The position numbers and the translations under genes are program-made. From the NCBI GenBank assembly GCA_041662665.1, contig JBAZSC010000001.1:321511-385510 (forward strand): a DNA stretch of 64,000 nucleotides, given 5' to 3'. Source of the stretch: Patescibacteria group bacterium. Lineage in GTDB: Bacteria; Patescibacteriota; JABMPQ01; JAQVVF01. Shown here in pieces: positions 1,823 to 63,510 of the stretch; position 1 is the first letter of the stretch; each line of letters begins with the position of its first letter. Below the pieces are notes generated by a model that saw only the letters and a list, made by a program, of their open reading frames with translations, ran no database searches and was not told the DNA's origin.

Positions 1823-1947
1823 ACGAATTTTCAATTATCAATTTACAATTTTCAATTAATTACTCAATTTTCAATTTTCAACTCGTCGTTTACTGAAAAT
1901 TGACGTTTGAAAATTTAATGGAAATTGGTCATTGATTATTGAAAATT

Positions 1948-2550
1948 TTATTTATGCTTGCTTTGAAAATAATAAACCGTTCCAACAACAAGAATTGCGA
2001 TTCCAGCTATTAATAAAATAATAAATAGAACCCAACTAAAAATCAGGTGGGAGAGCGAGACAAAAATATCGACTAGTATTCTGCCAAAACTTGTAGAATC
2101 AAGTAAAAAGATTGTTAAGAAAAAAATAAAAAAAATTAAAATATACTTTTTAAAAAAATCTTTTGGACTTGGCAAGAAAGTCTGTAAATATAGTTTTGTT
2201 TTTTTGAATGCTGATATTTTCTTTTTTCTATAATCACTCAAATCAGTTATCGCTTGATAATAAATTTCCAAGTTTTTAATTGTCTCAATTTTTGTCAGAG
2301 TAAAATTTTCTTTTTCGACAATTTTTTTGCATAATGCTCTTGTTTTTTCTAATTCATTTGCATCTGTATAAACAAAGCTTAAAGCCGAGATTTGTCTTTC
2401 TAAATCATCGCCTGGCAAATCAAAATCAGACACTGCTTCTTTAAAAAGTTTTTCAGTTTCAACTAAAGCCATCATATTTCCAGAATCAGTTTTTTCTGAT
2501 AAATATTTTTCTACTTTTTCCCATGACAATTCTTTGTTTTTTTCAGACAT
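1948..2550 (-). CDS. hypothetical protein with C-terminal transmembrane segments
   Basis: 200-aa ORF with a hydrophobic C-terminal half; no recognisable domain. Confidence 0.5.
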   Translation of the reverse strand: MSEKNKELSWEKVEKYLSEKTDSGNMMALVETEKLFKEAVSDFDLPGDDLERQISALSFVYTDANELEKTRALCKKIVEKENFTLTKIETIKNLEIYYQAITDLSDYRKKKISAFKKTKLYLQTFLPSPKDFFKKYILIFFIFFLTIFLLDSTSFGRILVDIFVSLSHLIFSWVLFIILLIAGIAILVVGTVYYFQSKHK

Positions 2551-2651
2551 TTTTTATGTGATTTACGAATTTACCTTACAGATTATTATATAATAAAACA
2601 TACTTAAACTCAAACAAAAAGCGGACCCTTCTGATCCGCTTTTTGGGAATT

Positions 2652-12021: not shown

Positions 12022-12143
12022 AATGTTTGTTTTAATTTTTAAATTCTAATTAATAATTTCTATCTAATTTCTAATTAATTAATTTTCAATTCAATTTAAT
12101 GTTTGTTAAAAAATTAGAAATTGAAAATTAGAAATTTAGTAAT

Positions 12144-12449
12144 TTATTCTTGTTTAAAAGCTCCTACGATATTTCTAACTTTTTTAAAAACTTGCGAAAC
12201 AGATGCAATTGGTTTTAATAAATTGTTATTGATATCTTGGATCGTTGTTGTTAAACCATTAACTGTAGTTGTCAAATCGCGAACCATTGGATCAATTTCG
12301 TTTAATTTTCTGTTGACATCTTCAACAGTTTTTTTTGATTCTTGGACAATCTTTGTAAGATTGAATACAAGATGACACAAGAATCCTGTAAATGCCAAAA
12401 TTGCTATGCTCGACGCAATAAGCAAAATGTCGTTGCTTGTTTCTAACAT
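12144..12449 (-). CDS. DUF948-like membrane-anchored coiled-coil protein
   Basis: N-terminal TM helix plus coiled coil; commonly paired with YtxH-like proteins. Confidence 0.5.
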   Translation of the reverse strand: MLETSNDILLIASSIAILAFTGFLCHLVFNLTKIVQESKKTVEDVNRKLNEIDPMVRDLTTTVNGLTTTIQDINNNLLKPIASVSQVFKKVRNIVGAFKQE

Positions 12450-12620: not shown

Positions 12621-13466
12621 ATGGCCAAACAAATTCCACATGAAGAATATATAGAATATGAACAAAAGCAAGTTTCAAAAGATTTTGATCGAAAAAGAAT
12701 GATTTTGAAATATGAAAAAACTGTTATGATAGCAATAATTGTTGTAGTTGTTTTAATTGTTTCGGCAACAATTGGTTTTCTAGTCTATCGCCAAAACAAA
12801 CCAATCGAAAATCAGGCAATCAATCAAACTGTTGAAGCTCCTCCAGCAGGTTTTGCAATCACTACCAAACAAGTTGACATTATAAAAGAAAGTGAAAATA
12901 AATATGATGCTTTTCTTAGAGTTGTTGATTCTGACCAGAATTGGGGAGTGTCAAAATTAGATTATAAAATTTCGTTGAAAGGAGCTGACAAAAGTGTTGT
13001 TGGCGAAAGAACAGGAGTAACCTACATTTTGCCAAATCAAGAAAAATCAATTATTGAACTTGGAATTGATACTACAGCAGCAGCAGCCTCAGTTACAACT
13101 GATTTACAAATTAAAGAAGTTCAAAAATTAACTGAATCGCCAGCATTAAATTTTACAACCGAAAATTTAGCTTATCAGGTCGCGGATAACAAAAGCAAAG
13201 TTACTGGCACAATTGTCAATCAAACACTTTTTGGTTTTCCTGAAATTATGATTAATGTCTTAGTTTATGAAGAAAATAAATTAGTTGGCTATAATTATAC
13301 AACTGTCAATGATTTGACTCCAAATCAAAAAAGAGATTTTACAGTTTTCTGGCGCAAAGATCTCAATGTTAAAAATCCCAAAATAGTAGTTGAACCATAC
13401 GTTAATCCATTTAATTCTCAGCCATTCTTAGATATTTACAGTCAAGGACAGATGCTGGAATATTAA
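12621..13466 (+). CDS. hypothetical membrane-anchored protein
   Basis: 281 aa with a single N-terminal TM; no known domain. Confidence 0.5.
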   Translation: MAKQIPHEEYIEYEQKQVSKDFDRKRMILKYEKTVMIAIIVVVVLIVSATIGFLVYRQNKPIENQAINQTVEAPPAGFAITTKQVDIIKESENKYDAFLRVVDSDQNWGVSKLDYKISLKGADKSVVGERTGVTYILPNQEKSIIELGIDTTAAAASVTTDLQIKEVQKLTESPALNFTTENLAYQVADNKSKVTGTIVNQTLFGFPEIMINVLVYEENKLVGYNYTTVNDLTPNQKRDFTVFWRKDLNVKNPKIVVEPYVNPFNSQPFLDIYSQGQMLEY

Positions 13467-13545
13467 CCATTAACAATTAACCTTTAACCTTTAACTTTTA
13501 ACAGCTGGTGTTAACTGTTGATTGTTAATTGTTAACTGTTGAATC

Positions 13546-15052: not shown

Positions 15053-15200
15053 TATTGCCAAAAAAAATAAAGATGCTATACTTATTCATGATTGATTTTG
15101 CGAAAAATAGTCTTTTTATTTTTATTAAATTTATAATTGTTAGCGGTTCTTAAGTTAAACTAATTCTGTTAACTGTTAACTGTTAACTGTTTACTAATCT

Positions 15201-17165: not shown

Positions 17166-17316
17166 TTCCAAGTAATTAGCAATCAGTAATTAGTAACTAG
17201 CAACCATTAAAAGTTTTTTGTTACTAATTACGGTTTACCAATTATTAATTCCTAGCAGTCAATTGCCGACTCAAAACAAAAACTTTTAGTCGTAAGCATG
17301 GCTGTTAGACAATAAC

Positions 17317-21809: not shown

Positions 21810-21909
21810 TGTGTTAGTCACTAATATCTTAATATCCGAATTTCCGAATATCTTCGTGTTTAAATAATGAGATATTAAGAAATTCGGAAATTAAGAAATT
21901 ATAATTTAA

Positions 21910-23400: not shown

Positions 23401-23413
23401 AATTTTTTATAAA

Positions 23414-39682: not shown

Positions 39683-39689
39683 GTAAGCA

Positions 39690-44003: not shown

Positions 44004-44112
44004 ATTAATATAATACGAATCTACAAATGGATGCTAATCTACGAAAATACGAATACGACAATTCGCATATTTGTAGATTAGCATAAAATTCGTAGATTCG
44101 TATTACATATAT

Positions 44113-44904
44113 ATGAAAATAATTGCAGGTATCAAATTTAATGTTTTAGACAAGATCTATAATTTTGACCAAAATAATATTATACTAAATAAGGGTGATA
44201 AGGTCATTGTTGAGACAGAACAAGGTACAGAAATTGGCACCGTTGTTTTTGCTAACAAAAATGTTGATGAAACAAAGCTTGAATTTGCTTTAAAGCCAAT
44301 TTTAAGAAAAGCAACAACAACTGATACTGAAAAGCTTGATAATTATAAGATTAAGCAGGAAGAAGCTTTAAAAGTATGCAAAGAATTAGTTGGCAAACAC
44401 AATTTAGATATGAAAATAGTTGCTGCTAATTATACTTTTGATGGTTCAAAAATAATTTTTTATTTTACTGCTGAAAGCAGAGTTGACTTCAGAGAATTAG
44501 TAAAAGACTTAACAAAAAAATTTCAAAAATCAATTCGCTTGCAACAAGTAGGATCCAGAGATGTTGCTGCAAAATGCGGCGGATGCGGAATGTGCGGTAA
44601 GGAATTATGTTGCACAAAATTCTTAAAAGATTTTGCTAGCATCACAACAGATATGGCACGAGAACAACAAATGGTTCAGCGAGGATCAGATAGAATTTCA
44701 GGTTGTTGCGGAAGATTATTATGTTGTTTAGCATACGAAACAGAATTATATCAAGATTTAGCTAAAGATTTTCCAACAGTTGGCAAAAGAGTTAGAACAA
44801 AACAAGGAGTTGGAACAGTTATTGGCAGAAATCTATTAACCAGAAATTTGGATATATTGCTTGATGATAAGACAAGAATATCAGTTAAGCTCCCGGAGAG
44901 ATAA
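44113..44904 (+). CDS. PSP1-domain protein (YaaT/RicT-like) with Cys cluster
   Basis: N-terminal PSP1-like region and CGGCGMCGKELCC...CCGRLLCC. Confidence 0.55.
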   Translation: MKIIAGIKFNVLDKIYNFDQNNIILNKGDKVIVETEQGTEIGTVVFANKNVDETKLEFALKPILRKATTTDTEKLDNYKIKQEEALKVCKELVGKHNLDMKIVAANYTFDGSKIIFYFTAESRVDFRELVKDLTKKFQKSIRLQQVGSRDVAAKCGGCGMCGKELCCTKFLKDFASITTDMAREQQMVQRGSDRISGCCGRLLCCLAYETELYQDLAKDFPTVGKRVRTKQGVGTVIGRNLLTRNLDILLDDKTRISVKLPER

Positions 44905-45042
44905 TTTCTAATTATAAATTTCTAATTTCTATTAAATTCTTAATGAATTAATTTTCAAACCTAACGGCTAGTATAGACATTAGAAATTAATGCATTATTA
45001 ATTTAATAAAAATTAGAAATTAGAAATTGAAAATTAATAACG

Positions 45043-45678: not shown

Positions 45679-45788
45679 AATTTCATTCTGTCATCGCTGG
45701 TTAAATTTGTTGGTGTCAACAAATTTAACCAGCGAAGGATCCCATGATTTATTGCTGATTAATGGAATAATTGCGTAAACTTTTAACG

Positions 45789-46226: not shown

Positions 46227-46336
46227 TTCGAAAATTACAAATGTCAAATTCCAAATTCCAAACAAATTACAAATCACAATATACAAAATCTTTGTAATTT
46301 GTTTGGAATTTGTTATTTGTAATTTTATTTAATCTC

Positions 46337-47089: not shown

Positions 47090-47098
47090 GAACATGCT

Positions 47099-47963
47099 AG
47101 AAACTCGGTTTTCTATTAATCAAAAAAATAAACTTATTGTAAGTAAAAACAAGGTATAAAAAATAATCATTTAATTAAGATAAAACCGAGTTTCGCGTGA
47201 ATTCAAAAATAGAAATGCGCAAAACAAATTTTACAAATGAATCATTTTATCATATCTACAATCGCGGTACTGAAAAACGCGATATTTTTTTGCAAAATTA
47301 TGATTATTTTCAATTTATTAAATTATTAAGAAAATATAAAAATAATTTAGTTGAAATAATCTGCTATTGCTTAATGCCGAATCATTTTCATTTATTGCTA
47401 AAACAATTAAATAATAATGGAATCAGCAAGTTCATGCATTTATTAACAATAAGTTATGCAAAATATTTTAACAAAAAATATGATCATAGCGGAGTTTTAT
47501 TTCAGGGAAAATTTAAAGATGTCCAGATTTTGAGCTATATTCAATTGCTAAATATTTCAAAATACATCCATATAAATCCAGCTAAAGATCAGAATATTTT
47601 ATTAAAACAAAAAATAATTACATTAGAAAATTATCCTTGGTCTTCTTATAAAGATTATATAAATATCAGAAACGGAACATTATGTAATAAAACCGAAATA
47701 ATAAATTGTGTAGAAGGTAATTTTGTAAAAGAGTATAAAGAATTAATAAAGGCACATTTGATGAATTATAATGAGAGAAATTTGGATAAATTAATACTTG
47801 AATGAGTGAAATAGAAACTCGGTTTTCTATTAATCAAAAAAATAAACTTAATGTAAGTAAGAACAAGGTATGAAAAATAATCATTTAATTAAGATAAAAC
47901 CGAGTTTCATCATGTTGTAAATAATTGACACACGAAACTCGGTTTCTTCGGAAACCGAGTTTC
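47099..47963 (+). mobile_element. IS200/RAYT-like element: Y1 transposase gene flanked by 97-bp direct repeats plus a terminal REP-like hairpin
   Basis: Copies at 47099-47194 and 47813-47908 share 94 of 97 bases. Each carries GAAACTCGGTTTT ... AAAACCGAGTTTC. An extra perfect hairpin GAAACTCGGTTTC-ttcg-GAAACCGAGTTTC lies at 47934-47963. Confidence 0.65.
47197..47805 (+). CDS. tnpA: IS200-like / REP-associated tyrosine (Y1, HUH) transposase
   Basis: FYHIYNRGTEKRDIF, HUH motif CLMPNHFHLLL, and catalytic-Tyr region YIHINP. The start is GTG at 47197 or ATG at 47215. Confidence 0.8.
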   Translation: MNSKIEMRKTNFTNESFYHIYNRGTEKRDIFLQNYDYFQFIKLLRKYKNNLVEIICYCLMPNHFHLLLKQLNNNGISKFMHLLTISYAKYFNKKYDHSGVLFQGKFKDVQILSYIQLLNISKYIHINPAKDQNILLKQKIITLENYPWSSYKDYINIRNGTLCNKTEIINCVEGNFVKEYKELIKAHLMNYNERNLDKLILE

Positions 47964-48481
47964 AAAGAATGTGTTAATTTTCGCGCAAAATAAAACCGGG
48001 CAAAAGCTCGGTTAAGGGAACAAAGGGCAAAAAATCGATTCATCCAATTGGCGTTCATTTTATTGTCTTCTCCGTCAGGAGTTGGGGGAGTCGCTTGGCA
48101 CTTATAACTGTTAACTTTCAACTGTTAACTAGTTTTCAGTCGCCCATGACGTCCTCCTCTACCAATGGGGTAGAGGTTAGCATCGCCATAGTTTCAGGCG
48201 CGCCTTCCTCGACCCAGGGAACCAAAGATCAAGATGATTTATAACAATGTATTATAGCAAGCCTGTAGTATTTGTCAATAGATTTGGACAATTTAGTGTA
48301 ATTAGTAATGAGTAACTAGTAATTAGGCGAAAAAACTTGCAAAATTATTAATACCTGATATTATCAAAATTGTCAGTAATAATAGACAAAATAAGCTAAA
48401 ATAGCTTGTTTTTATTTTGCCTTGTTTAAAGCAAAATATGTCAAAATATCGAAAAAGATAATAAATATTTGTAAAAACCTC

Positions 48482-48510
48482 TTGACATGATAAAAATAGA
48501 GTAATATAAT
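48482..48510 (+). promoter_or_regulatory. perfect consensus sigma70 promoter TTGACA-17-TATAAT
   Basis: Exact hexamers with a 17-bp spacer. Downstream lies a non-coding stretch with 32-bp tandem repeats rather than a long ORF. Confidence 0.6.
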
Positions 48511-48574
48511 GCAGAGTTCTAAGCTCAAACCAAGCTCATTCCAAAATGTCAATCAGAGCAAACTAGTTTAACAG

Positions 48575-48654
48575 TCTAACCAGTTTAGGTTAACCAGTCT
48601 AACTAGTCTAACCAGTTTAGGTTAACCAGTCTAACTAGTCTAACCAGTTTAACC
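48575..48654. repeat. tandem repeat, 32-bp unit x2.5 (TCTAACCAGTTTAGGTTAACCAGTCTAACTAG)
   Basis: Two perfect units plus a partial third. Confidence 0.8.
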
Positions 48655-48974
48655 GCATTTCCGTCTATTTATTAGAGGAGGTGAAATGGTCTCCAGGGAA
48701 TAAATCTTTTCTTTAGTCCTTGCTGAGCCACTTCGGCCTCTAATAAATGGGCAGAATGAAATTTCCAATTACCAATTTCCAATTCACAATAAATTTTCAA
48801 TAAGCAATTTTCAATGACGACAGTGACGATTTGAAAATTAGTAATTGGTCATTTATTGTAAATTGATAATTGGAAATTAGAGATATGTAATCAGTAACTA
48901 GTAATCAAAAAATTGATTCCTAAATACTGATTGCGTGCGAGAGGGGACCAAGAGTCCTCGAGGAGGAAAGGACA

Positions 48975-49196
48975 ATGGCGAATTGCATCATCTGCCACCA
49001 GCGCGTTGCGAGCGGCGGTGACCGGCATGCCAAGGGGCAGTGTCCGGCGAAGAAGAAGGAGCGCGAGCAGAAGGAGAACGAGGTGCAGGCCGGCGATCTC
49101 GCGACCCCGGGTCGCGGAGACGTCGTGCCGCTGGCCGGCAAGACCAGCACCCAGCTCTCCAACAAGGGCAAGTCCCGGGGGTCCAAGTCGGGCTGA
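48975..49196 (+). CDS. small basic protein with CCHC-like zinc knuckle, encoded by a ~65% GC gene
   Basis: MANCIICHQRVASGGDRHAKGQC... K/R-rich tail, with CGAGGAGGAAAGGACA RBS. Third codon positions are almost all G/C. Overlapping ORFs in the other five frames are GC artefacts. Confidence 0.5.
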   Translation: MANCIICHQRVASGGDRHAKGQCPAKKKEREQKENEVQAGDLATPGRGDVVPLAGKTSTQLSNKGKSRGSKSG

Positions 49197-49379
49197 GCCT
49201 GACACGACCCACAAGACGAGCCCAAGTACTAGGTTCTAGTGTCGTTCCGTTTCATCCCCAAGTTCCCCAGATTTTTCTTCAGTTTTCCGCCAGTACCTTC
49301 CATGCCAGACTCTTGTCTGGCCCCACCTGAAATAATAATGATTACATTGTTATTTGAGGCGGTACATTAAAAAATGATC

Positions 49380-49550
49380 AATTTACAATTTTTCACCCTT
49401 CGGGTGACCACCCGCAGGGTGGCAATAAATTACCAATTACCAATTTTCAAAGCGACGATGGTCGTAATTGGAAATTGTTCATTGAAAATTTATTGGAAAT
49501 TGCAAAATTGGTAATTGCCACCCTACGGGTGGTCACCCGAAGGGTGAGAA
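49380..49550. repeat. composite palindrome: CCAATTT/TTCAATT word arms with GC-rich terminal inverted repeats
   Basis: CACCCTTCGGGTGACCACCCGCAGGGTGGC on the left pairs with GCCACCCTACGGGTGGTCACCCGAAGGGTGAG on the right. Same word family at 1830-1947, 48760-48900, 49920-50050 and 50850-50940. Confidence 0.75.
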
Positions 49551-49638
49551 ATTAGGGTTTGCGGTAAAGCAAAGATCTTAAAAAAGATTTTCGCCTTGCT
49601 GCAAAGTGCAGCCTATAGCAGAGAAGGAAAAGTAAACG

Positions 49639-49815
49639 ATGAACGATCAGATGGACGCGGCGGACCGGCGGATCATGGACGAAACGACTGTTCGGCTCGA
49701 AGGCCGGCAGGTCAAGTCCAGCCAGGGAGCTGGTTCCAGGTCGGCAGAAGTGCCAATCTGGAAGATCCGCGCGAGCCGTCGTGCTCTCCCCGCCATGGCA
49801 GTCTACGGCGACTAG
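49639..49815 (+). CDS. small basic hypothetical protein (58 aa) in a GC-rich segment
   Basis: ATG preceded by AGAAGGAAAAG, with GC3-rich codons. Below the track size cut-off. Frame chosen by RBS and GC3; the alternative track frame 49596-49886 starts with TTG. Confidence 0.35.
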   Translation: MNDQMDAADRRIMDETTVRLEGRQVKSSQGAGSRSAEVPIWKIRASRRALPAMAVYGD

Positions 49816-50148
49816 ACCTACCCCCAACTCTTCAGTTTTCCGCTCGTACCCTCCTGTGGTCACTTTTCGTGGCCACCTCAGCTTAAGCAACGATGTGATC
49901 GTTGAGTAAGTAGAGAACGTTACAAAATTATCAATTTCCAATTTACAATTCTCAATAAATTTTCAATGAACGATTTCCAATGGCGATACTCGGTCTGAAA
50001 ATTGAAAATTGGTAATTTATTGGAAATTGTAAAATTGATAATTGGAAATTAAATCTAGCTTTCAGCAGTTTGCCTCAAATTATTTTGAGACACACTATTG
50101 ATAGCTACATCTCGTCCTTTCACCAACTGAAGCACACAAGGAGGAAAA

Positions 50149-50814
50149 ATGCCAAGTAAAGACAAGCCAAGACATGTTTTTGTTAATTGCTTGTTTCATG
50201 AAAACGAAAGGCTTACAGTCACCAACAAGGATGGTGAATTAAAAGCCTGGGGATTTGATGGCGATGTAATAAGTATCATCTCGGAATCCATGTTGCTTAG
50301 CATATCGGGTTCCAATCTGCAACTTGATAAAAGAAAAAAAGCATTGTGTAGATATTTAAAGCTTTTCTTCAACGAAGGAAAACAACCTCCAGCAATTTGT
50401 TTTGAGCATGCAAGGAAGTTGGAATCTGTGTTGTTGCAAATGCGACGATTTCTTCCTAAGGAAAAAGCTAATGTCCAGATTTCTATGATTCCATATCAAG
50501 AAAGTCTGGATAAATGGGCAATCTGGGTAGCCGAAGTAAAAAGAAATAGAGATATTGAAGCTACGAGATTGTGGCGTGAGATTATTTCTAAGCATTTTCC
50601 AGATGATGAAAGTATTGCAGACGAGCAAGACGCAAAAGTGCTTGCTGATCGTCTGTCTTCTGAATGTGTTAGAGAATTATTTGATAAGATACGCAATACT
50701 GCACTTTACCGCAAATCAGAAAAATCTGAATTGCTGAAACAGATCGGATTGTACTTAGCAGAAAAAGCGTATGAAGAAGCAAAAATAAAACATGAAATAG
50801 ATTCTTGGAAGTAG
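50149..50814 (+). CDS. hypothetical protein (221 aa)
   Basis: AAGGAGGAAAA RBS; ~40% GC; no recognisable domain. Confidence 0.5.
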   Translation: MPSKDKPRHVFVNCLFHENERLTVTNKDGELKAWGFDGDVISIISESMLLSISGSNLQLDKRKKALCRYLKLFFNEGKQPPAICFEHARKLESVLLQMRRFLPKEKANVQISMIPYQESLDKWAIWVAEVKRNRDIEATRLWREIISKHFPDDESIADEQDAKVLADRLSSECVRELFDKIRNTALYRKSEKSELLKQIGLYLAEKAYEEAKIKHEIDSWK

Positions 50815-51247
50815 ATGACTGCATTTTAACCTCTGTATGTTTCCAGTTTTTATCAAGTTTTTAATGAATAATTTGCAATAGTTTGAAAATTAATTCATTG
50901 AAAATTTAATAAAAATTAATAATTAGAAATTAAAAATTCGCTGTCAGCCTTTTGCCTCAAATCATTTGGAGACAAAAGATTGATAGCCTGTCCCGTACTA
51001 TGTTTCTGGTGAATATAAAAAAACATTGATTACTTTAGGAATTTAATCAATGCAACAAACAATATTTATTAGATACTTAGTATGGGATTAATGCTAGAAC
51101 ACTGACAACTTGGAAGGTAAAAATAATAGTCAAAAGTGTTAACTGTTAAGTGTTAATGGTTAACTGTTTGAAGTTGGCACATCGCGGCCAGGCAAGGCCG
51201 CGTTCGCGCGCGAGTAGATTCCGCTTGTGTCAGAGGAGGAGAGCGAC

Positions 51248-53515
51248 ATGTCGACCAACTGCGAGCCGAAGAGCGTCAGCACCGTCAACACCGTCACCGA
51301 GGAGAAGGAGGTGAAGCCCGCCCGGGTGCGCAAGCCCCGGGTGAAGGTCGAGAAGGAAGAGCAGGAGCAGTTCAACGAGGATGGCACGAAGAAGGATGTG
51401 AAGGACGAGGCCCCGCCCAAGAAGCGGAGCCACCACAAGAAGGTCGAGAAGTCCGTCGCCGTCGAGACCGAGACCGCCGAGCCCGCCCCGCCCGCCGAGT
51501 CCACCCCCAAGGTGGCGTCGGTGGCGGTGGTCGAGCAGCCGGTCCAGGTCGCCCCGCCCGCCGCGCCCCAGCCCGAGCCCCCCAAGAAGGGCGAGGTCGA
51601 GGACGTCAACGAGGACGAGGACAAGGACGGCGAGAGCGAGGGTGAGGACGAGGAGCAGGAGACCAGCGAGGAGGCGCTGGAGGACGCCCAGATCAACGAC
51701 CTGGAGTTCCAGAAGAAGATGAGCGAGCTCCCCCGGCACGAGCAGATCCGGCGGCAGAAGGCCCGCAACCGGGTCATCACGAGCAACCGGCGCAGCCGCA
51801 AGACGGCGGCGCAGGACAAGAACCGCGCGGAGCACAACGAGATGCGCGAGGCCGGGCGGCCGGAGGTGAAGATCACCATCCCGGACCCCCTGATCTGCAG
51901 CGCCCACGCCGGTGAAGTCCTGAAGCTCGAGGACGCCTACTCGCTGAACAGCAGCGTGGTCTACGAGCTGACCCAGGTGAGCCAGGAAGGCAAGACCGAG
52001 GCGCAGACCAAGATCCTGAAGTTCGTGGTGAGCAAGCTCGCTCCGCTGTTCCGGTTCAACTGCGAGACCATCCCGGCCTACTGCAAGACGGTGGTGGACG
52101 TGCTGGCGAAGAACATCGCGGCCGTCCAGCCCCTCATCGCGCACGAGAAGAAGGCGCGGTGGGAGAGCCGGATCGTCATGCCCTACGCGGCCGCGCTCCG
52201 GCACTTCGCCGAGAGCAAGGCCGCGGTCGAGGGCAAGCAGCAGAACGTCAAGGACCGGCAGAACAAGGAGGCGTGGGCCTGGTTCGACGAGAACATCGGC
52301 AAGTTTCACGCCGAGCTGGTCGGGCTGCGCAGCGTCGAGGAGATCGTCGGCAAGATCGACATCCTGAACGGCCTGAACGACAAGTGTCTCGACACCTTGC
52401 GCCACCACTTCCTCGAGACCCTGCCCGTGATGCGCTACAGCGAGCCCGGCAAGATGCTGGGTCAGCTGCTGCGCGAGCGGGGCAAGAAGTACGAGCAGGT
52501 GCAGATCGAGGAGCAGCGGGCCCGCAAGGCCGAGGCCGACGAGAAGCGCAGGAAGGAGGAAGAGAAGGCTCTGGCCGGGCTGGGCGAGCTCGAAGGGCTG
52601 TTCGGTGGCGAGGAGAAGCAGGGCGAGGAGCAGGACGAGGAGCCCAGCGAGCGTGACGAGAACGAGAAGCGGATCGGCAAGTGGCTGGAGAAGCTTGTCG
52701 GCGGGAAGATGCACAGCGCGGCCGGGCTGATGACGCCCAGCGCCCTGCGCGAGATCTTCGCCGCGGATCCGGGCGCCGAGGTCTACTCGGCCTGCCCGTT
52801 CAGCCAGCAGGCGCCGGGGACCCAGTACTCCACCTACGTGAACCGGAAGGGCGACAACGAGCCCCTCTTCGCGACGGTGACGGTCCCGACCCTCGTGGTC
52901 GAGACCGACGACGAGGGTCAACCGATCTGCGACGGCAAGGGGCGGCCCAAGCCGTGGATCAACCCCCGTACGAGCAAGACGCAGTACGAGGGGCAGATCG
53001 CGGTGCTGACGAAGCACGAGGCCCGCTGGGCCGCGTCGATCCGCATCCGCCAGATGGCCGAGGAGCAGGTGAACAACGGCCGGTACGACTCGCTGGAGGA
53101 GGCCATCAACGGCATCCATCAGGAAGTCAACCAGGCCAAGACCAACCTCTGGGCGGCCAAGAAGGAGTTCAACGAGGCCAAGGTCTCCGGCGACCAGAGC
53201 CGCATCGACGCGGCCGAGGAGCGCCTGAACCAGGCCAAGGAGGTCATGAACCATCTGAGCGACGACCGTCGTCCGTGGTACCAGGGGATGCTCGAGGGAA
53301 GCCTCGGTGTCCTCAAGTACTACGATCTCAAGAACACGGTCGAGATGCTCAACAAGCCCCGTGAAGAGCGGCCCGCCAAGCGCAACACGCGCGGCGGCGG
53401 GACCCACGGCAACTACGAGCAGGAGCAGTCCCAGGGCGCGAGCGCGGAAGAGCAGGAGGCCTTCTTCCGCAGCCAGAACAACCAGAGCTTCGCCAACAAG
53501 GCCCGCCAGGTCTGA
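51248..53515 (+). CDS. large hypothetical protein (755 aa) with K/E/P/A-rich disordered N-terminus and coiled-coil segments, encoded by a ~65% GC, GC3-saturated gene
   Basis: ATG at 51248, 6 nt after GAGGAGGAG. Codons are almost exclusively NNC/NNG. The antisense 785-aa ORF (51230-53587) is a GC artefact (L/G/R/A-rich). Confidence 0.6.
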   Translation: MSTNCEPKSVSTVNTVTEEKEVKPARVRKPRVKVEKEEQEQFNEDGTKKDVKDEAPPKKRSHHKKVEKSVAVETETAEPAPPAESTPKVASVAVVEQPVQVAPPAAPQPEPPKKGEVEDVNEDEDKDGESEGEDEEQETSEEALEDAQINDLEFQKKMSELPRHEQIRRQKARNRVITSNRRSRKTAAQDKNRAEHNEMREAGRPEVKITIPDPLICSAHAGEVLKLEDAYSLNSSVVYELTQVSQEGKTEAQTKILKFVVSKLAPLFRFNCETIPAYCKTVVDVLAKNIAAVQPLIAHEKKARWESRIVMPYAAALRHFAESKAAVEGKQQNVKDRQNKEAWAWFDENIGKFHAELVGLRSVEEIVGKIDILNGLNDKCLDTLRHHFLETLPVMRYSEPGKMLGQLLRERGKKYEQVQIEEQRARKAEADEKRRKEEEKALAGLGELEGLFGGEEKQGEEQDEEPSERDENEKRIGKWLEKLVGGKMHSAAGLMTPSALREIFAADPGAEVYSACPFSQQAPGTQYSTYVNRKGDNEPLFATVTVPTLVVETDDEGQPICDGKGRPKPWINPRTSKTQYEGQIAVLTKHEARWAASIRIRQMAEEQVNNGRYDSLEEAINGIHQEVNQAKTNLWAAKKEFNEAKVSGDQSRIDAAEERLNQAKEVMNHLSDDRRPWYQGMLEGSLGVLKYYDLKNTVEMLNKPREERPAKRNTRGGGTHGNYEQEQSQGASAEEQEAFFRSQNNQSFANKARQV

Positions 53516-53622
53516 ACCTTCCAACAACCCGCCCCCGGGACAAGTCCAAGCTTTAAGCTTGTAACCTTGCTCCCTGGCGCGCGGCACACTACCATTCCAG
53601 TTCTTTCATTCCCGTTCCTTCA

Positions 53623-53650: not shown

Positions 53651-53773
53651 CACTAAGTTATCAGTTAACAGTTGAAAGTTATAAGTTACGTCAATTTACT
53701 CTTGCCATTTTTCAAGATTCCTGCTATCATTGCAGTATAGCTTATAACTTACAACTTTTAACTTATAACTTCG

Positions 53774-53929
53774 ATGCCACAAGATAATCTCATTAAATTA
53801 GAATGCACTGTTTGCAAGAGCATTAATTATTATTCTCGCAAGAACAAAAAAGTTCTTAAAAATAAAATTGAGATCAAAAAATTCTGCAAGAAATGCAAGA
53901 AACATACTCTACACAAAGAGACTAAATAA
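53774..53929 (+). CDS. rpmG: 50S ribosomal protein L33
   Basis: MPQDNLIKLECTVCKSINYYSRKNKKVLKNKIEIKKFCKKCKKHTLHKETK. Below the track size cut-off; classic L33 zinc ribbon. Confidence 0.85.
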   Translation: MPQDNLIKLECTVCKSINYYSRKNKKVLKNKIEIKKFCKKCKKHTLHKETK

Positions 53930-54043
53930 CAAATTCCAAATTCCAAACAAATCCCAAATTACAAAAAACAAACCAATAAAACAATTTTGTAGTTTGTGAT
54001 TTGTAATTTGTTTGTGTTTTTGGGATTTGGGATTTTAACACAA

Positions 54044-56783: not shown

Positions 56784-56940
56784 TTTTTTTACGAGAATTA
56801 TGAATAATGAATCAGGAATCATGACTTGAATAATGAGTAATGAATTTAGAATTCGATATTCTTAATTCATGCTTCAAATCATGATTCATAATTCGTTATT
56901 CATAATTCTTTTTTGATTGACTTTATTTTAATCTCAGAAT
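56784..56940. repeat. long imperfect palindrome, ATTCATAATTC/GAATTATGAAT word family
   Basis: A second copy of the family lies at 63410-63510. Confidence 0.75.
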
Positions 56941-58150: not shown

Positions 58151-58226
58151 TGTCATTCTGAGCGAAGCGAAGAATCCCATTAATGAGCAATATAATCATG
58201 GGATCCTTCGCTTCGCTCAGGATGAC
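58151..58226. repeat. palindromic dispersed repeat, GTCATTCTGAGCGAAGCGAAGAATCC...GGATCCTTCGCTTCGCTCAGGATGAC family
   Basis: Near-perfect ~28-bp arms. Other copies at 43190-43271, 45682-45750 and 59016-59094. Confidence 0.8.
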
Positions 58227-59015: not shown

Positions 59016-59094
59016 CTGTCATCCTGAGCCACAGCGAAGGATCCCGTTAATGAACAATGGTCTCGAGATTCTTCACTGCGGTTCAGAATGACGG
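59016..59094. repeat. palindromic dispersed repeat (same family as 58151-58226)
   Basis: CTGTCATCCTGAGCCACAGCGAAGGATCCC ... CTTCACTGCGGTTCAGAATGACGG. Confidence 0.75.
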
Positions 59095-59106: not shown

Positions 59107-60573
59107 ATGAATCAAAATCCTACAGAAAATTTAAAAAAATATTTAGATTTAGCGAGAAAATCAAAAACTTTTGAATTTCTTAATATCTTAATATCAGAAT
59201 ATCCGAAGGCTAGTATCTATTTAGTCGGTGGTTTTGTGCGTGACCAAATTTTAGGTTTAGAATCCAAAGATTTAGATTTTGTTGTTACAAAAATTAAGGC
59301 AGATGATCTGAAAAAATTTTTAGGAAAATATGGTTCTGTAGAATTAGTCGGTGCTTCGTTTGGTGTTTTTAAATTTGTGCCAAAAGAATCAGAATTTATG
59401 AATCAGAAAATGGAAGCTTTTGATATTGCTCTTCCTCGAACAGAAAAATCTTTAGGAACTGGCGCATATCGAGATTTTGATGTCCAATCAGATCCAGAAT
59501 TGCCAATAGATGTTGATTTATCAAGACGCGATTTGACAATCAATGCCATTGCTTATGATATCAAAAATGATTCTATAGTTGATCCATATTTTGGTCAAAA
59601 AGATTTAGCTAATAAAATAATCAAAGCAGTTGGCGAGCCAAAACAAAGATTCCAAGAAGATTATTCCAGAATTTTAAGGGCAATAAGATTTGCTCTAAAA
59701 TTTAATTTTCAAATTGAAGATAATACTTGGCAAGCAATTAAAGATGACGCTCCAAAAATTTTAGATGCAGTTCCATTTGAAACAATTTCTAAAGAATTAT
59801 TGAAATCTTTAGACGCAAATCCAGTTAGATTTTTAGATCTTTATGATCAAAGCAAATTATTAAATATAATTTTGCCAGAAGTAGAAGAATGCAAAGGTGT
59901 TATTCAGCCAAAAGAATTTCATGAAGAAGGCGATGTTTATGAACATACAAAATTAGCGTTAACTTTTATTCCCAAAAATTCTACTGTCAGATTTAAACTA
60001 GCAACTTTATTGCATGACATTGGCAAACCAAGCACAACTAAAACTCCAGAAAAAGATGGTGTTGAAAGAGTGCGCTCTGACGAACATGCCGAAGTCGGTG
60101 CAGAAATTACTGGCTATATATGCAATCGCTTAAAATTGCCAAATAATTTATCAAACGAAATAGTTTGGCTGGTAAAATACCACATGTTTTTTGTTTCAGG
60201 AAAAGTTGAAGATATGCGTCCAAACACAATCAAAAAATATTTTATTGATAATCCAAAATTAGGTGATGAACTTTTGGATTTATATTATGTTGATACAAAG
60301 GCATCATTTGGTCCAACTCAAGAAAAAAATTTAGCAAGAATTACTGAAGTTCGCGATTATATTAATAATATGCGTGAACAATTTAGAAAATCAGAAATAA
60401 AAACTTTCCGACATGTTATCGATGGACAAGATATTATGAAAGAATTTAATTTAAAACCTGGAAAAGAAATTGGAGAATATTTGGAAAAAGCAGATAAATT
60501 TATTTTGGAATTTGTTACCAAAAATGGGGAAGAGCCTAGTAAAGAAGAAGTCCTAAAAAGTCTAAAATCCTAA
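59107..60573 (+). CDS. cca: CCA-adding tRNA nucleotidyltransferase with HD domain
   Basis: GGFVRDQILG...DLDF head motif, RRDLTINAIAYD, and an HD region HDIGK. Confidence 0.85.
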   Translation: MNQNPTENLKKYLDLARKSKTFEFLNILISEYPKASIYLVGGFVRDQILGLESKDLDFVVTKIKADDLKKFLGKYGSVELVGASFGVFKFVPKESEFMNQKMEAFDIALPRTEKSLGTGAYRDFDVQSDPELPIDVDLSRRDLTINAIAYDIKNDSIVDPYFGQKDLANKIIKAVGEPKQRFQEDYSRILRAIRFALKFNFQIEDNTWQAIKDDAPKILDAVPFETISKELLKSLDANPVRFLDLYDQSKLLNIILPEVEECKGVIQPKEFHEEGDVYEHTKLALTFIPKNSTVRFKLATLLHDIGKPSTTKTPEKDGVERVRSDEHAEVGAEITGYICNRLKLPNNLSNEIVWLVKYHMFFVSGKVEDMRPNTIKKYFIDNPKLGDELLDLYYVDTKASFGPTQEKNLARITEVRDYINNMREQFRKSEIKTFRHVIDGQDIMKEFNLKPGKEIGEYLEKADKFILEFVTKNGEEPSKEEVLKSLKS

Positions 60574-60702
60574 ATTCTAAATCCTAAACAAATTCAAATG
60601 ACTAAAATCAAAATGATCAAAAGTCGATTTGAAATTTAGTATTTGAATTTTTAATTTGTTTAGAGTTTAGGATTTAGTGCTTTGAGTTTTAATTAAAAAA
60701 AT

Positions 60703-62111: not shown

Positions 62112-62323
62112 ATGATTAATTTCATCTTTTTTTATTTCTTGTCTCAATCCGTCAAATTTGGTAAAATAACTATATAAAAATTCAATAAACAAATTCCAAA
62201 TCCTAAACAATTTACAAATTACAAAACACAAAATATCTTTGTAATTTGATTAAAAAAATTGTATTCCAATTTTTTTAATTGTGGTTTGTTTGGAATTTGA
62301 GATTTGTAATTTAATTTAACTTT

Positions 62324-63409
62324 ATGTTAAAAATTGTAATTCTAGCAGGAGGAACAGGAACTCGTTTTTGGCCACAAAGTAGAGAATCAACTCCAAAACA
62401 ATTCAGTAAAATCATTGCTGACAAGACAATGATTGAATTAACTTATGAAAGGTTTTTGGCTGATTTCAAAAAAGAAGATATCTATTTTTCAACCAATCAA
62501 AAATTCGCCAAAATTATTAAAAAAATATTTCCAAAAGTTAGCAAGGAAAATATTATTATTGAGCCAGAAAAAAGAGATACAGCACCAGCAATGGGTTTTG
62601 TTGCTGCATATTTAGACAACAAATTTCCAAATGATCCTATGGTTTTTATTCCATCAGATCATTATATTGCAGATGTTAAAAAATTTATCCAATCATTAAA
62701 GTTGGCAAGTAAATTTATTGAAAAAACTGGCAAGATGATGGACATTGCAATTACTCCAAATTTTCCAAGCACCGTTTTAGGATACACTCATATTGGCAAA
62801 AAAAGCCAAGAAACAAATGGCATTAAAATTTATGAATTTAAAGGTCATGTTGAAAAGCCAGATTACAAAACAGCAGAACGATATTTAAAAGCTGGCGATT
62901 ATTTATGGCATGCTAATTTTTATATGTGGACTCCAAAATTATTTTTAGAAGCTTACAAAAAATATTCACCAATCCATTACAAATCTTTAGCCAAAATTAA
63001 AGAATATTTAAAAAACAAAGATCTAAAAAAGGCAGATGATGAATTTAAGAAAATGCCAAAAGATTCAATTGATTATGCTATTACTGAAAAAATGGATCCA
63101 AAAGATGTCTTAATTATCAAAGGTGAATTTGGCTGGAGTGATATTGGCGCTTGGGATGTTTTGTATGATCAATTATCAAAAGAACAAGATGCTTCAAAGA
63201 ATATGGTCAAAGCAGTTTGGGAAGGTTTAGATACAACAGGCTGTTTAGTTTACGGCCCAAAGGATAAAATCATTGCCACAATTGGTGTAGATGATATGAT
63301 CATTATCGACACTCCTGATGCCTTATTAGTCTGTCCGCAAAGCAGAGCCCAAGATGTCAAGAAAATTGTGGAGAGTTTGAAAGCGAAGAAGAAGGAGAAA
63401 TATTTATAA
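62324..63409 (+). CDS. manC: mannose-1-phosphate guanylyltransferase
   Basis: MLKIVILAGGTGTRFWPQSRESTPKQF nucleotidyltransferase N-terminus. Confidence 0.85.
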   Translation: MLKIVILAGGTGTRFWPQSRESTPKQFSKIIADKTMIELTYERFLADFKKEDIYFSTNQKFAKIIKKIFPKVSKENIIIEPEKRDTAPAMGFVAAYLDNKFPNDPMVFIPSDHYIADVKKFIQSLKLASKFIEKTGKMMDIAITPNFPSTVLGYTHIGKKSQETNGIKIYEFKGHVEKPDYKTAERYLKAGDYLWHANFYMWTPKLFLEAYKKYSPIHYKSLAKIKEYLKNKDLKKADDEFKKMPKDSIDYAITEKMDPKDVLIIKGEFGWSDIGAWDVLYDQLSKEQDASKNMVKAVWEGLDTTGCLVYGPKDKIIATIGVDDMIIIDTPDALLVCPQSRAQDVKKIVESLKAKKKEKYL

Positions 63410-63510
63410 TGAAGTATGAATAATGAATTATGAATTATGACTAGAATAATGAATCTAGAATAGAGAATCATTCTTTATTCATTATTCTTAATTCATAATT
63501 CTTGATTTAA

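Follow-up and report, generated by a model that had tools for sequence, protein, structure and literature searches.

Bacterial MITEs that fold as long hairpins, such as Correia, Nezha and RUP, are one well-known class of intergenic palindrome. In Nostoc and Anabaena, 7-bp repeats called STRR form intergenic hairpins (PMC2670836); the tandem 7-nt units of these heterocystous cyanobacteria lie in intergenic or intercistronic DNA, and hairpins form where arrays are inverted, as between hupS and hupL, for which a role in transcript stability or translational coupling was proposed (PMC2670836). Among the long simple repeats of bacteria, heptamers are the most frequent, and polymerase slippage has been named as their cause (Mrazek 2007, summarised in PMC4679880). 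Other heptamer arrays lie a few nucleotides before start codons without a Shine-Dalgarno sequence, namely the TAACTGA direct repeats of Beggiatoaceae, Cyanobacteria and Bacteroidetes (MacGregor 2015, PMC4679880) and the TTTTGAA heptamers of Nostoc 7120 (bioRxiv 10.1101/2022.06.06.494920). The patchy distribution of TAACTGA-type heptamers across phyla suggests either transfer or a common mutational cause. REPs are described in PMC3733652 as units of 20-40 nt, usually with a GTAG or CGTC tag. Finally, CPR phyla had the highest densities in a survey of perfect inverted repeats (PMC13155455). A full-text literature search on the GTCAT motif described below, and on REPs, terminators and hairpins of CPR bacteria, found no description of such elements.

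We analysed a 64-kb stretch of a Patescibacteria genome (hereafter the window, or W when compared with the relatives' loci L001, L085, L086, L002, L094 and L096). A gapped palindrome scan with a score of at least 30 found 28 long hairpins of 38-167 nt in the window, against 0.5 on average and never more than 2 in block-wise dinucleotide shuffles; with a score of at least 34, the counts were 23 and 0. The sequence-only reading, according to which nearly every gene end is followed by a long imperfect palindrome, was thus partly confirmed, the palindromes being real but overstated: at the score threshold of the scan, 19 of the 65 gene or tRNA 3' ends (about 30%) have a long hairpin within 40 nt downstream, and perhaps about 25 when weaker hairpins are also counted. 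Many other gene ends in the window carry ordinary short terminators with a GC stem and a T run, or nothing. Of the 28 hairpins, 24 lie mostly in non-coding DNA, which is about 16-18% of the window. Together the hairpins account for 4.1% of the 64 kb and for 23% of the intergenic DNA. The stems begin 0-15 nt past stop codons, and many stop 2-10 nt short of the next start codon, or in one case 8 nt short of tRNA-Trp. Many span the stop-to-start spacer, with 0-12 nt free on each side and no visible Shine-Dalgarno sequence. Hairpins are present between the genes of the atp operon, and also in divergent promoter regions, in 5' leaders, at convergent ends and after tRNAs. No Rfam family matched at gathering thresholds, and permissive scans gave only sub-threshold matches to miRNA-precursor models, which reflect generic long hairpins.

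The arms are built mainly from heptamers. The mean lag-7 self-identity of the left arms is 0.48, compared with 0.275 in coding controls, the best lag is 7 in 17 of 28 arms, and Tandem Repeats Finder independently reported period-7 arrays in the arms, in agreement with the earlier proposal that each arm is a concatenation of short words. A period of 7 is lacking in the GTCAT family, in the repeats flanking the RAYT-like gene and in the hairpins at 42.4 and 44.0 kb. The word hairpins of the window have small loops. When folded, the sense strand is no more stable than the antisense strand and few G·U pairs occur on either; a sense-strand G·U bias, looked for in the hairpins as a test of RNA-level selection, was not found. 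The arms match at the DNA level, without sense-strand bias. The GTTAAC clusters noted earlier do occur, but at 15.2, 24.4, 48.1 and 51.1 kb the heptamers are arrayed directly and have no inverted counterpart.

An all-vs-all blastn comparison of the window hairpins gave 23 related pairs at E<1e-6 and none against reversed-sequence decoys, which preserve composition and periodicity. The elements and their families are as follows, with the strand given for the direct arrays and no strand assigned to the palindromes.

23295-23405: F1 hairpin (AAATTCC/AAATTAC words, CCAAACAAAT core), between atpD and atpC, identical in four same-species metagenome contigs
23846-23958: F1 hairpin 3' of atpC
46239-46325: F1 hairpin, 12 nt past tRNA-Thr
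53924-54035: F1 hairpin that overlaps the stop codon of rpmG, its end 8 nt short of tRNA-Trp
60565-60675: F1-related hairpin (AAATCCT words) with three C-G to T-A changes, paired on both arms
62178-62317: F1 hairpin whose right half contains a second small palindrome
1826-1947: F2 hairpin (AATTTTC/CCAATTT words), convergent gene end
48761-48884: F2 hairpin at the edge of a high-GC island
49387-49553: composite nested hairpin enclosing a complete F2 heptamer hairpin (49424-49516)
49926-50050: F2 hairpin
12041-12145: F3 hairpin (TTCTAATT/AATTAGAA words), convergent gene end
44902-45036: F3 hairpin, beginning within the stop codon of the PSP1 gene and ending 6 nt before the next start
50847-50938: F3/F2-like hairpin after a 221-aa island gene
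21822-21901: F4 hairpin (TAATATC/CCGAATTT words), between atpG and atpD
56794-56909: F5 hairpin (GAATTAT/GAATAAT words; G-rich arm first)
63406-63501: F5 hairpin
13463-13540: TTAAC-word hairpin, starting in a stop codon and ending about 10 nt before an ftsW-like start
36268-36326: TTAAC-word palindrome just downstream of a promoter-like site, upstream of rpsB
53655-53771: AGTTATC/AGTTAAC-word hairpin with a promoter-like site in its 49-nt loop, upstream of rpmG
15154-15195, forward strand: TTAACTG heptamers in direct, not inverted, array immediately ahead of the L25 start, conserved in relatives
24411-24443, forward strand: direct heptamer array (ACTTATA/ACTGTTA) past a stop codon
38716-38804: TTCTGCG-word hairpin directly 3' of truD; L001 has a direct array of these words
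17173-17244: TAATTAG/TAACTAG-word hairpin 3' of atpB, absent from L085 and L086
18718-18776: CTTAGGT-word hairpin between atpH and atpA
43192-43269: GTCAT-family palindrome, non-periodic, with conserved GTCATYCTGA...TCAGRATGAC ends
58152-58226: GTCAT-family palindrome, 93% complementary
59018-59092: GTCAT-family palindrome
45682-45768: degenerate GTCAT element with a perfect 17-bp hairpin in its left arm
44008-44108: ATACGAA/TCTAC-word hairpin filling the spacer between pyrH and the PSP1 gene, 4 nt free on each side

Every word family reported from the sequence alone, and nearly every position given for it, was recovered; for the GTCAT family the copies at 43.2, 58.2 and 59.0 kb hold, and the one at 45.7 kb is a degenerate fragment. 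Identity between members of a family in the window is only 84-95%, over 23-95 nt, and no near-identical full-length pair, which would prove recent movement, was found among them. The six F1 copies align in register around an invariant AAACAA core, the irregular conserved core of the family being CCAAACAAAT...ATTTGTTTGG. In several families the copies align end to end, in F1 with this irregular core included, and they therefore descend from one another and did not originate independently. The word hairpins as a whole fall into at least six unrelated sequence families without a shared conserved head. It is true that AT-rich repetitive words easily give spurious matches, and about 40% of the metagenome matches to an 18-mer of the F1 core are non-periodic chance matches; however, the dinucleotide shuffles and the reversed decoys refute a low-complexity coincidence in AT-rich spacers, an explanation to which we give practically no weight. 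The scan and the clustering point instead to recurrent families.

In the composite element, the outer GC-rich arms (49387-49426 and 49514-49553) are 95% complementary and each forms two small stem-loops. Three F2 copies lie in one island together with other duplicated segments, and these three could have originated by segmental duplication. An exact look-up of the 762-aa island protein and of the RAYT-like protein in a contig index gave no usable match, and a tblastn search of the island ORF against phages gave no match.

Two further identities were considered and rejected. Integron attC sites have a core of the form RYYYAAC...GTTRRRY (R''/R'), which GTTAACT, as read from the sequence, does not fit; moreover, there is no tyrosine recombinase among the window ORFs scanned against Pfam, and the hairpins flank core genes (atp, rpmG). 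The stem-loop arrays of TIGR-Tas systems have box C/D motifs, two spacers in large loops and an adjacent Tas gene, whereas the hairpins here are small-looped.

A RAYT-type transposase, the class of enzyme that mobilises REPs, had been noticed in the window and linked to the palindromes. The gene and its surroundings are organised as follows, again with no strand for the palindromes.

47197-47805, forward strand: RAYT-like Y1 (HUH) transposase ORF of 202 aa (Pfam Y1_Tnp, E=3e-10)
47098-47194: inverted pair of GAAACTCGGTTTT, forming a 97-nt unit upstream of the gene
47812-47908: second copy of the 97-nt unit, 97% identical, downstream of the gene
47934-47963: perfect REP-like hairpin, GAAACTCGGTTTC-TTCG-GAAACCGAGTTTC

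By eye, the PNHFHLL (HUH) and YIHINP motifs can be recognised in the protein sequence, and inverted REP-like pairs around such an ORF are the canonical RAYT arrangement; the hairpin with GAAACTCGGTTTC indeed adjoins the gene, as had been noted. The ORF is Y1/RAYT-like, but the protein scores 45.6 bits against the NCBIfam model REP_Tyr_transpos, under the RAYT cut-off of 80. Could the dispersed hairpins be REP/REPIN elements mobilised by this enzyme? HUH enzymes take hairpins of single-stranded DNA as substrates, the window hairpins show DNA-level symmetry, and in L085 a Y1 gene that passes the NCBIfam RAYT cut-off adjoins a GC-rich REPIN-like palindrome. As in REP/REPIN-RAYT systems, the window combines dispersed families of intergenic palindromes with a RAYT-like gene that has inverted REP pairs of its own. 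In REP systems, however, the copies flanking the gene match the dispersed ones, and this is not the case here. The flanking REP, GAAACTCGGTTTY, occurs at 6 sites in the 64-kb window, all within 47100-47963, and was not found in 251 other fetched loci; it has no similarity to the F1-F5 or GTCAT families. In addition, the word hairpins are heptamer repeats of 70-170 nt and not 20-40-nt REPs, belong to several unrelated families and lack the GTAG or CGTC head of the REPs described in PMC3733652. Because GAAACTCGGTTTY, in the window and these loci, is confined to the flanks of the gene, the RAYT link is unsupported, and mobilisation of the word hairpins by this enzyme appears very unlikely.

The comparison with relatives bears on whether the hairpins are mobile. 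In the orthologous atpD-atpC, atpG-atpD and X-ftsW spacers, a hairpin is present in 4-5 lineages but is made of 3-4 unrelated word sets. Certain sites are occupied by a long hairpin in all the relatives that were compared, yet by different families, even with flanking genes about 97% identical. Between L085 and L086, the TTAAC words at X-ftsW are swapped for TTCTAATT words (an F3 hairpin in L086); the differences are confined to positions 706-778, over a background difference of about 3% (flanking genes about 97% identical). As both genomes are mosaics with 87-100% identity, this swap could be a short recombination import. At the atpH-atpA site, W has the CTTAGGT hairpin, L001 a GTCAT element, and L085 and L086 none. 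L001 carries a TTCCCAT direct array in place of that at 24411-24443, and a ATTGTTTT direct array of W corresponds to the left arm of an L001 hairpin. The F4 and GTCAT families recur at non-orthologous sites in relatives, the F4 arm sequence lying at 18908-18985 in L001 with its arm order swapped. According to these alignments, the hairpins turn over faster than anything around them, and their gain, loss and replacement among relatives are what would be expected of mobile or rapidly regenerating DNA. The REP/MITE-like behaviour ascribed to the palindromes therefore holds as regards dispersed families and turnover, but not as regards the RAYT link and a terminator role.

Conventional MITEs, that is, IS deletion derivatives moved in trans and bounded by terminal inverted repeats and target-site duplications, would share several of these properties. 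Like Correia, Nezha and RUP elements (80-170 bp), the hairpins, here 70-170 bp, have hairpin potential over their whole length, are intergenic, show presence/absence polymorphism between relatives and would be co-transcribed with their neighbours; GTCAT elements in particular are cleanly inserted in L001 relative to W and L085, and one hairpin copy, of F2, is nested. On the other hand, no target-site duplication or fixed termini were recognisable when filled and empty sites were compared at atpF-atpH, atpB-atpE, atpH-atpA and X-ftsW, and conserved termini were not seen in the word-family alignments. The window ORFs scanned against Pfam include no parent IS and no transposase besides the Y1 gene. 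Nor is a 7-nt periodicity, or the occurrence of the same words in direct arrays with no inverted counterpart, characteristic of MITEs, and we consider a MITE origin distinctly unlikely.

The long hairpins had also been read as terminators. Intrinsic terminators evolved in place might need very long stems in an AT-rich genome, and their shared words would then result from composition and slippage. In line with this, the stem-loops lie directly downstream of stop codons, both convergent gene ends without a classic terminator carry a hairpin, the sites are occupied throughout the lineages, and some F1 copies are followed by T-rich tails. Yet the 9 nt past the stem contain 4.0 T on average, without enrichment over the 40% background, and only 2 of 18 have at least 6 T; nearby classic terminators have 5-7 T in the same tract. 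The genome does possess ordinary short GC-rich terminators, and those at 15.9 and 26.3 kb, with a GC stem and a T run, are conserved in relatives. The stems here are AT-rich, 30-55 bp long and located inside operons. Because many of them end 2-10 nt before the next start, or in one case 8 nt before tRNA-Trp, and lie between genes of the atp operon, there is no room for a promoter and the downstream gene must be transcribed through them. Moreover, the irregular core is common to copies across loci and genomes, and hairpins also occupy divergent promoter regions and 5' leaders. The lack of a T-tract, the lack of a sense-strand G·U advantage and the abutting starts indicate that these are not canonical terminators, and the position of the stems argues against efficient termination. 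Independent terminators are therefore an unlikely origin for the families, although partial termination, or a REP-like protection of mRNA ends, would be possible.

Selection for RNA- or protein-binding elements is a further, still doubtful, explanation. According to it, the arrays next to start codons would be candidate binding sites for S1, Csp, Csr-like proteins or the ribosome, masked by the complementary arm, so that downstream translation would need a ribosome terminating at the upstream stop codon (hairpin-mediated coupling). The stop-to-start geometry without a visible Shine-Dalgarno sequence and the conserved direct TTAACTG repeats abutting the L25 start fit this idea, and the same proposals have been published for the Beggiatoaceae TAACTGA and Nostoc heptamers near starts (PMC4679880; bioRxiv 10.1101/2022.06.06.494920) and for the hupS-hupL STRR hairpins (PMC2670836). 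The geometry is not independent evidence, however, since insertion into the short spacers of a compact genome would force it. Differing word families at orthologous sites are hard to reconcile with one sequence-specific binder, and hairpins lie at convergent ends, after tRNAs and around promoters too. Position by position, orthologous pairs show mostly broken base pairs and few compensatory changes, folding energy being kept through word redundancy, although this test is weak in both directions, one member of each pair having supplied the structure. Between relatives, hairpin arms change less than loops. Persistent site occupancy, the two-sided changes at 60.6 kb and this conservation of arms over loops would be equally expected under functional-RNA selection.

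We therefore return to the heptamer repeats. The reading we favour, with a probability of roughly 0.55, is that the hairpins consist of degenerate heptanucleotide tandem repeats arranged as inverted arrays, a Patescibacteria counterpart of the cyanobacterial STRR and heptamer repeats. They have more in common with STRR than with classical REP elements or terminators, a likeness of structure only. The phylum is different, the genome is tiny (about 645 kb), the words are AT-rich and the arrays degenerate. Furthermore, the arrays of the window mostly pair up as long palindromes filling the stop-to-start space, and the fast replacement at orthologous sites documented above also sets them apart. 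The TTAACTG word of the window is one base off TAACTGA, in register; however, TAACTGA arrays are nearly all direct repeats of one word, with 169 direct sets and one indirect (PMC4679880), whereas the window has many words, mostly in inverted pairs.

In such a scenario, replication slippage would create and lengthen the heptamer arrays, and fold-back or template switching would make the inverted copy; alternatively, a whole hairpin may be copied to another site by some DNA-level route. The apex of an existing hairpin may be an insertion target; this would account for the nested hairpin as well as for sites being occupied again and again. In the window and the compared loci, we found no mobilising enzyme for the word hairpins, no target-site duplication and no defined termini, and copying to new sites is thus deduced from family structure. 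As many hairpins fill the stop-to-start spacer, they would be transcribed inside polycistronic mRNAs. There, judging from their placement, they most plausibly act as structural punctuation, either as barriers to 3' exonucleases or as partial pause or termination sites; alternatively, the stems may couple translation by placing the stop codon close to the start that follows. RNA effects of this kind would be secondary to the existence of the hairpins as self-propagating repeats.

Word hairpins are present in L002, L094 and L096, at 51-61% protein identity, and mostly absent from Verrucomicrobia control loci, where 5 of 7 have none. In metagenomes, the 18-mer of the F1 core lies within heptamer-periodic arrays in 46 of 122 matches; one of these 46 contigs is named Patescibacteria and another is 707 kb long. 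The same hairpin architecture occurs in other Patescibacteria.

One may go further and speculate, although this joint reading is also doubtful, that the hairpins are Patescibacteria-wide, self-propagating single-strand elements with no dedicated transposase, which insert at hairpin apices, spread horizontally and have become necessary to the cell. A preference for the apex would explain the concentric, onion-like structure as well as site re-occupation, and the swapped arm order of F4 would suggest a circular intermediate. In genomes where Shine-Dalgarno sites are few, the cell might depend on the stop-to-start RNA hairpins for translational coupling and mRNA stability, and the F1 core in genomes of 31-56% GC would reflect a phylum-wide horizontal spread of one family.

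Patescibacteria genomes are among the smallest and most compact, yet about 4% of the sequence here, and about a quarter of the spacer DNA, consists of hairpin repeats. If these are purely selfish, a class of repeats that can do without a dedicated enzyme would have survived even strong genome reduction, which would also explain the top densities of perfect inverted repeats in CPR phyla (PMC13155455). If the cell uses them, they would constitute a general device to punctuate and couple genes in organisms that are difficult to handle experimentally. By linking the heptamer repeats of cyanobacteria and Beggiatoa to a third, unrelated lineage, the comparison would favour a general mutational cause for such repeats. 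On the practical side, the hairpins break metagenome assemblies and create spurious small ORFs, and they offer a fast-evolving marker to distinguish strains. Several 60-150 aa ORFs of the window overlap hairpin arms.

The window has a GC content of 31% and carries, besides the F-type ATP synthase operon (15.9-23.8 kb), rpsB, tsf, pyrH, four tRNAs and many proteins without known family. Within a span of 250 nt, a repeat finder returned 67 inverted pairs; arms in the longest measure 50-58 nt, at 71-95% complementarity. With a gapped palindrome scan, 28 non-overlapping hairpins scored at least 30, against a mean of 0.5 and a maximum of 2 in 20 shuffles of the window that kept dinucleotide content within 500-nt blocks; at a score of at least 34 the counts were 23 and 0. 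The hairpins account for 4.1% of the window's sequence and 23% of the intergenic part, and 24 of the 28 lie mostly within the non-coding 16-18%. Lag-7 self-identity of the left arms was 0.48 (0.275 in coding controls), with a lag-7 peak in 17/28, and period-7 arrays in the arms were reported independently by Tandem Repeats Finder. When the hairpins of the window were clustered with those of four relatives, 23 related pairs emerged at E<1e-6 and none with a decoy database of the same sequences reversed, in which composition and periodicity are both preserved. This rules out unrelated low-complexity coincidences, which the sequence-only reading had named as the result that would count against it. 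The hairpins are a real, strongly non-random feature of this genome.

That reading had also listed word families, which, with their coordinates, proved accurate on re-inspection; some of its word clusters are indeed hairpins, but others are direct arrays without an inverted partner. Its description was essentially right in kind and exaggerated in frequency, since a hairpin follows not nearly every gene end but 19 of 65 gene or tRNA 3' ends. Many of the remaining ends carry ordinary short GC-stem/T-run terminators. Several listed ORFs of 60-150 aa, among them 1711-1896, 47885-48121 and the stretch from 23390 that extends atpC upstream, run into hairpin arms and are artefacts.

The majority of the window's hairpins are of the heptamer-word type, that is, long imperfect palindromes whose arms are runs of degenerate heptamer words, and non-periodic palindromes form a minority:

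F1, words AAATTCC/AAATTAC
F2, words AATTTTC/CCAATTT
F3, words TTCTAATT
F4, words TAATATC/CCGAATTT
F5, word GAATTAT
Further heptamer word sets, TTAAC, TTCTGCG, CTTAGGT, TAATTAG and TACGAA
GTCAT family, non-periodic, 75-88 nt, with conserved ends GTCATYCTGA...TCAGRATGAC
Flanking repeat of the RAYT-like gene, a non-periodic palindrome of its own type
49387-49426 and 49514-49553, a GC-rich, non-periodic pair that encloses a complete F2 hairpin

Six F1 copies can be aligned end to end and have in common the irregular core CCAAACAAAT ... ATTTGTTTGG, which breaks the 7-nt phase at an identical position in 6/6 copies. Because slippage alone could not reproduce this irregular break, the copies are related by descent. 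The GTCAT half-site (GTCATYCTGAGC..GAAGRATCCC, at 58152-58226) is a widespread motif, found in the distant relative L002 and in 35 IMG/VR contigs (37-67% GC), where it is usually a lone half (palindrome in 4/40); it has no match in Rfam, and our literature search found no description of it. Two tandem repeats are composed of 9-nt sub-units, for example TAACCAGTC and TAACTAATC: a 32-nt unit repeated 2.9 times (48561-48651, 95% matches) directly downstream of a perfect promoter, and a 27-nt unit repeated 3.5 times (34847-34941, 97% matches) that fills a divergent promoter region.

The most informative result is the comparison with relatives. The window belongs to a small CPR genome, and the genomes closest to it by AtpG carry the labels of Patescibacteria or Saccharibacteria MAGs. 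We compared the window with syntenic loci of the same species (L081-L084, 99-100% identity), with syntenic lineages at about 75-87% nucleotide identity (L001, L085/L086 and L091, L085 and L086 being a close pair at about 95%) and with the more distant L002, L094 and L096. Hairpins are identical within the species. The two spacers next to atpC illustrate what is found between lineages:

Between atpD and atpC: F1 in the window; AATAACC words in L001, L085 and L086; CAAATGT words in L091
Between atpC and the next gene: F1 in the window; ACTAATT/TTCTAATT words in L001 and L091; no hairpin in L085

The first of these sites is occupied in the four closest genomes, by unrelated word sets. Across 15 orthologous spacers in six genomes, the atpG-atpD spacer and that between the ftsW-like gene and its upstream neighbour (gene X) have a hairpin in nearly every lineage, again with unrelated word sets; the atpF-atpH and atpI-atpB spacers almost never have one. 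The sharpest case of replacement lies 3' of gene X, where L085 has TTAAC words homologous to those of the window and L086 has TTCTAATT words. All differences between the two in this spacer fall within positions 706-778, and the flanking genes differ by 2-3%. Unlike the hairpins, the classic terminators 3' of the L25 and DUF3048 genes are well conserved in relatives, as are two leaders: that of L25 (15053-15200), closed at the start codon by TTAACTG in three repeats, and a structured one ahead of atpE (17245-17316).

Families also recur where the sites are not orthologous. The window has F4 in its atpG-atpD spacer, and L001 has it between two minus-strand genes; the arm TAATATCT.AATATC.GAATTTCCGAATATCT is the 5' arm in the window (21822-21901) and the 3' arm in L001 (18908-18985). 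This swapped order is a circular permutation, which simple palindrome inversion cannot yield. GTCAT elements occupy the atpF-atpH and atpH-atpA spacers in L001 only. Family swaps at orthologous sites, together with the same families at non-orthologous ones, make the hairpins the fastest-changing DNA in these genomes, and they change by gain, loss and replacement of whole elements. The same observations support the earlier view of them as mobile-like repeat families. Other differences were seen in these loci: between atpA and atpG the window encodes a 122-aa ORF, where L001 has another gene and L085 and L086 have none. Taken gene by gene, L085 and L086 are 87% to 100% identical, with the values falling into blocks, a pattern indicative of recombination between lineages.

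The sequence-only reading had further proposed that the hairpins double as terminators. For 18 stems in co-directional contexts, the 9 nt that follow contain a mean of 4.0 T, at a background T fraction of 40%; at least 6 T follow 2/18 hairpins, and the five classic terminators of the window have 5-7 T. Stems frequently start 0-15 nt from a stop codon and leave 2-10 nt up to the next start codon, or in one case 8 nt up to mature tRNA-Trp, too little to hold a promoter. Hairpins separate the genes of the atp operon, and are also present around promoter-like sites and in leaders. The missing T-tract, the tight spacing and these intra-operon and leader positions argue that the downstream genes are transcribed through the hairpins, so that termination in the canonical sense is unlikely; as a class, the hairpins lack the U-tract that defines an intrinsic terminator. 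One F1 hairpin overlaps the stop codon of a short ORF (53777-53932, below the ORF-list cut-off) read by eye as ribosomal protein L33 (rpmG), and tRNA-Trp starts 8 nt past this hairpin.

A role in RNA was considered from the folding of the elements. The sense strand has no folding advantage over the antisense strand and G·U pairs are rare on both, which argues that arm symmetry is kept at the DNA level and not by wobble-tolerant RNA selection. In orthologous hairpin pairs, most stem substitutions disrupt the base pairing predicted from the other member; even so, total folding energy is kept because the repeated words can pair in alternative registers. Three two-sided C-G to T-A changes in the F1 copy at 60.6 kb indicate that the arms are able to change together. 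The geometry would fit protection of 3' ends, as by REPs, partial pausing, or stop-to-start translational coupling, the last of which was proposed earlier for STRR and TAACTGA repeats (PMC2670836, PMC4679880). In the stretch 36237-36460, upstream of rpsB, a promoter-like site (TTGCCA-17-TATATT, preceded by a TG) comes before a TTAAC palindrome; about 130 nt that fold strongly come next, and then a classic terminator (36434-36452). The stretch is a candidate small RNA or leader, with no Rfam match.

Mobilisation by a RAYT had also been suggested, and the window encodes a candidate enzyme:

47197-47805 (+), RAYT-like gene, Y1 (HUH) transposase of 202 aa

The ORF matches Pfam Y1_Tnp (E=3e-10), contains the motifs HFH and YIHINP, and scores 45.6 bits against the NCBIfam RAYT model (cut-off 80), for which the Y1 gene of L085 reaches 113.5 bits. 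A 97-nt unit lies on either side of it as direct copies that are 97% identical, each composed of GAAACTCGGTTTT as an inverted pair, and a single perfect GAAACTCGGTTTC hairpin comes after the second copy, as would be expected of a RAYT with its REPs. The flanking motif, however, is confined to the surroundings of the gene, with no further site in the window or in 251 other fetched loci, and clustering found it unrelated to every hairpin family. On the sequence comparisons made here, nothing connects this enzyme to the word hairpins, and the proposal of RAYT-mobilised REPs is not supported. The REP/REPIN class was rejected, the hairpins having neither RAYT-matching flanks nor a short tagged unit.

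Two sites point to generation of the elements in place. The window has a direct ACTTATA/ACTGTTA heptamer array 3' of the carbonic-anhydrase-like gene and L001 a direct TTCCCAT array, followed in both by a conserved promoter-like stretch. The second site, at 12.5 kb, is a divergent region where ATTGTTTT is directly repeated in the window; in L001 related words, ATTGCTA/ATTGTTA, make up the left arm of a hairpin. Since direct arrays stand where L001 has arrays or a hairpin arm, the primary unit seems to be the heptamer array, with the hairpin composed of two such arrays in inverted orientation. The published reason why 7-nt units are the commonest long simple bacterial repeat, as given in PMC4679880 and traced there to Mrazek 2007, is replication slippage. 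Heptamer arrays could likewise arise by slippage, and the inverted partner could be added via fold-back or template switching; what is said here on the route of spread and on the role of the hairpins is inferred.

The nearest described systems are the cyanobacterial STRR, tandem arrays of a 7-bp unit that give intergenic hairpins, for example between hupS and hupL, with a proposed role in transcript stability or translational coupling (PMC2670836), the TAACTGA direct repeats of Beggiatoaceae, Cyanobacteria and Bacteroidetes, located just 5' of start codons without Shine-Dalgarno (PMC4679880), and the TTTTGAA heptamers known in Nostoc (bioRxiv 10.1101/2022.06.06.494920). We classify the window hairpins as STRR-like heptamer repeats in a new phylum, distinguished by being mostly long palindromes and by rapid replacement at fixed sites. 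The MITE class was rejected on terminal repeats and target duplication, and on the Y1 gene being the only transposase among the window ORFs scanned against Pfam, which leaves no parent element there; attC sites were rejected on their defining tests. A 2026 survey found perfect-inverted-repeat density to be highest in CPR phyla of all phyla and left the nature of these repeats undescribed (PMC13155455); our literature search found no paper describing CPR heptamer-word hairpins, REPs or unusual terminators.

Word hairpins are present in relatives down to 51-61% protein identity (L002, L094 and L096). Verrucomicrobia control loci had none in 5/7, and 5 and 2 in the remaining two. An exact 18-mer of the F1 core occurs in at least 120 metagenome stretches, a figure that speaks of occurrence and not frequency, as the query selects the core by construction. 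Among the matches listed, the context is heptamer-periodic in 46/122, and 17 of these 46 lie inside a strong hairpin (contig GC 31-56%). Also among the matches listed, the contigs assignable to a name include one of Patescibacteria and one, with a direct array only, of Dehalococcoidales.

Two segments of the window differ in composition. The first (38800-42400) has 40-44% GC, unlike the surrounding genome, and contains:

39731-40708 (-), MYG1-family gene
40848-42353 (-), TPR protein
a 223-aa ORF of no family

The second (48900-53600) reaches 58% GC within a 31% GC genome:

48976-49197 (+), ORF of 73 aa
49640-49816 (+), ORF of 58 aa
50149-50814 (+), ORF of 221 aa
51227-53515 (+), ORF of 762 aa

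Several of these ORFs have clear Shine-Dalgarno sites, and host-type AT-rich heptamer hairpins separate successive ones. The 762-aa protein has no match in Pfam, NCBIfam or phages, and a search of 5.8 billion proteins gave a single match, 100% identical, on a JGI contig of 7,960 nt. The island looks like a recent foreign acquisition already invaded by hairpins. At its head sit two back-to-back perfect sigma-70 consensus promoters, TTGACA-16/17-TATAAT (48278-48251, minus strand; 48482-48510, plus strand), and two further 12-of-12 matches are found at 29525-29553 (+) and 42574-42546 (-). Two copies of a structured 60-nt motif, GCTnTCAGC..TTTGCCTCAAATnATTTnGAGACA..ATTGATAGC, are present (50046-50105 and 50928-50987); each comes right behind a word hairpin and precedes an island gene.
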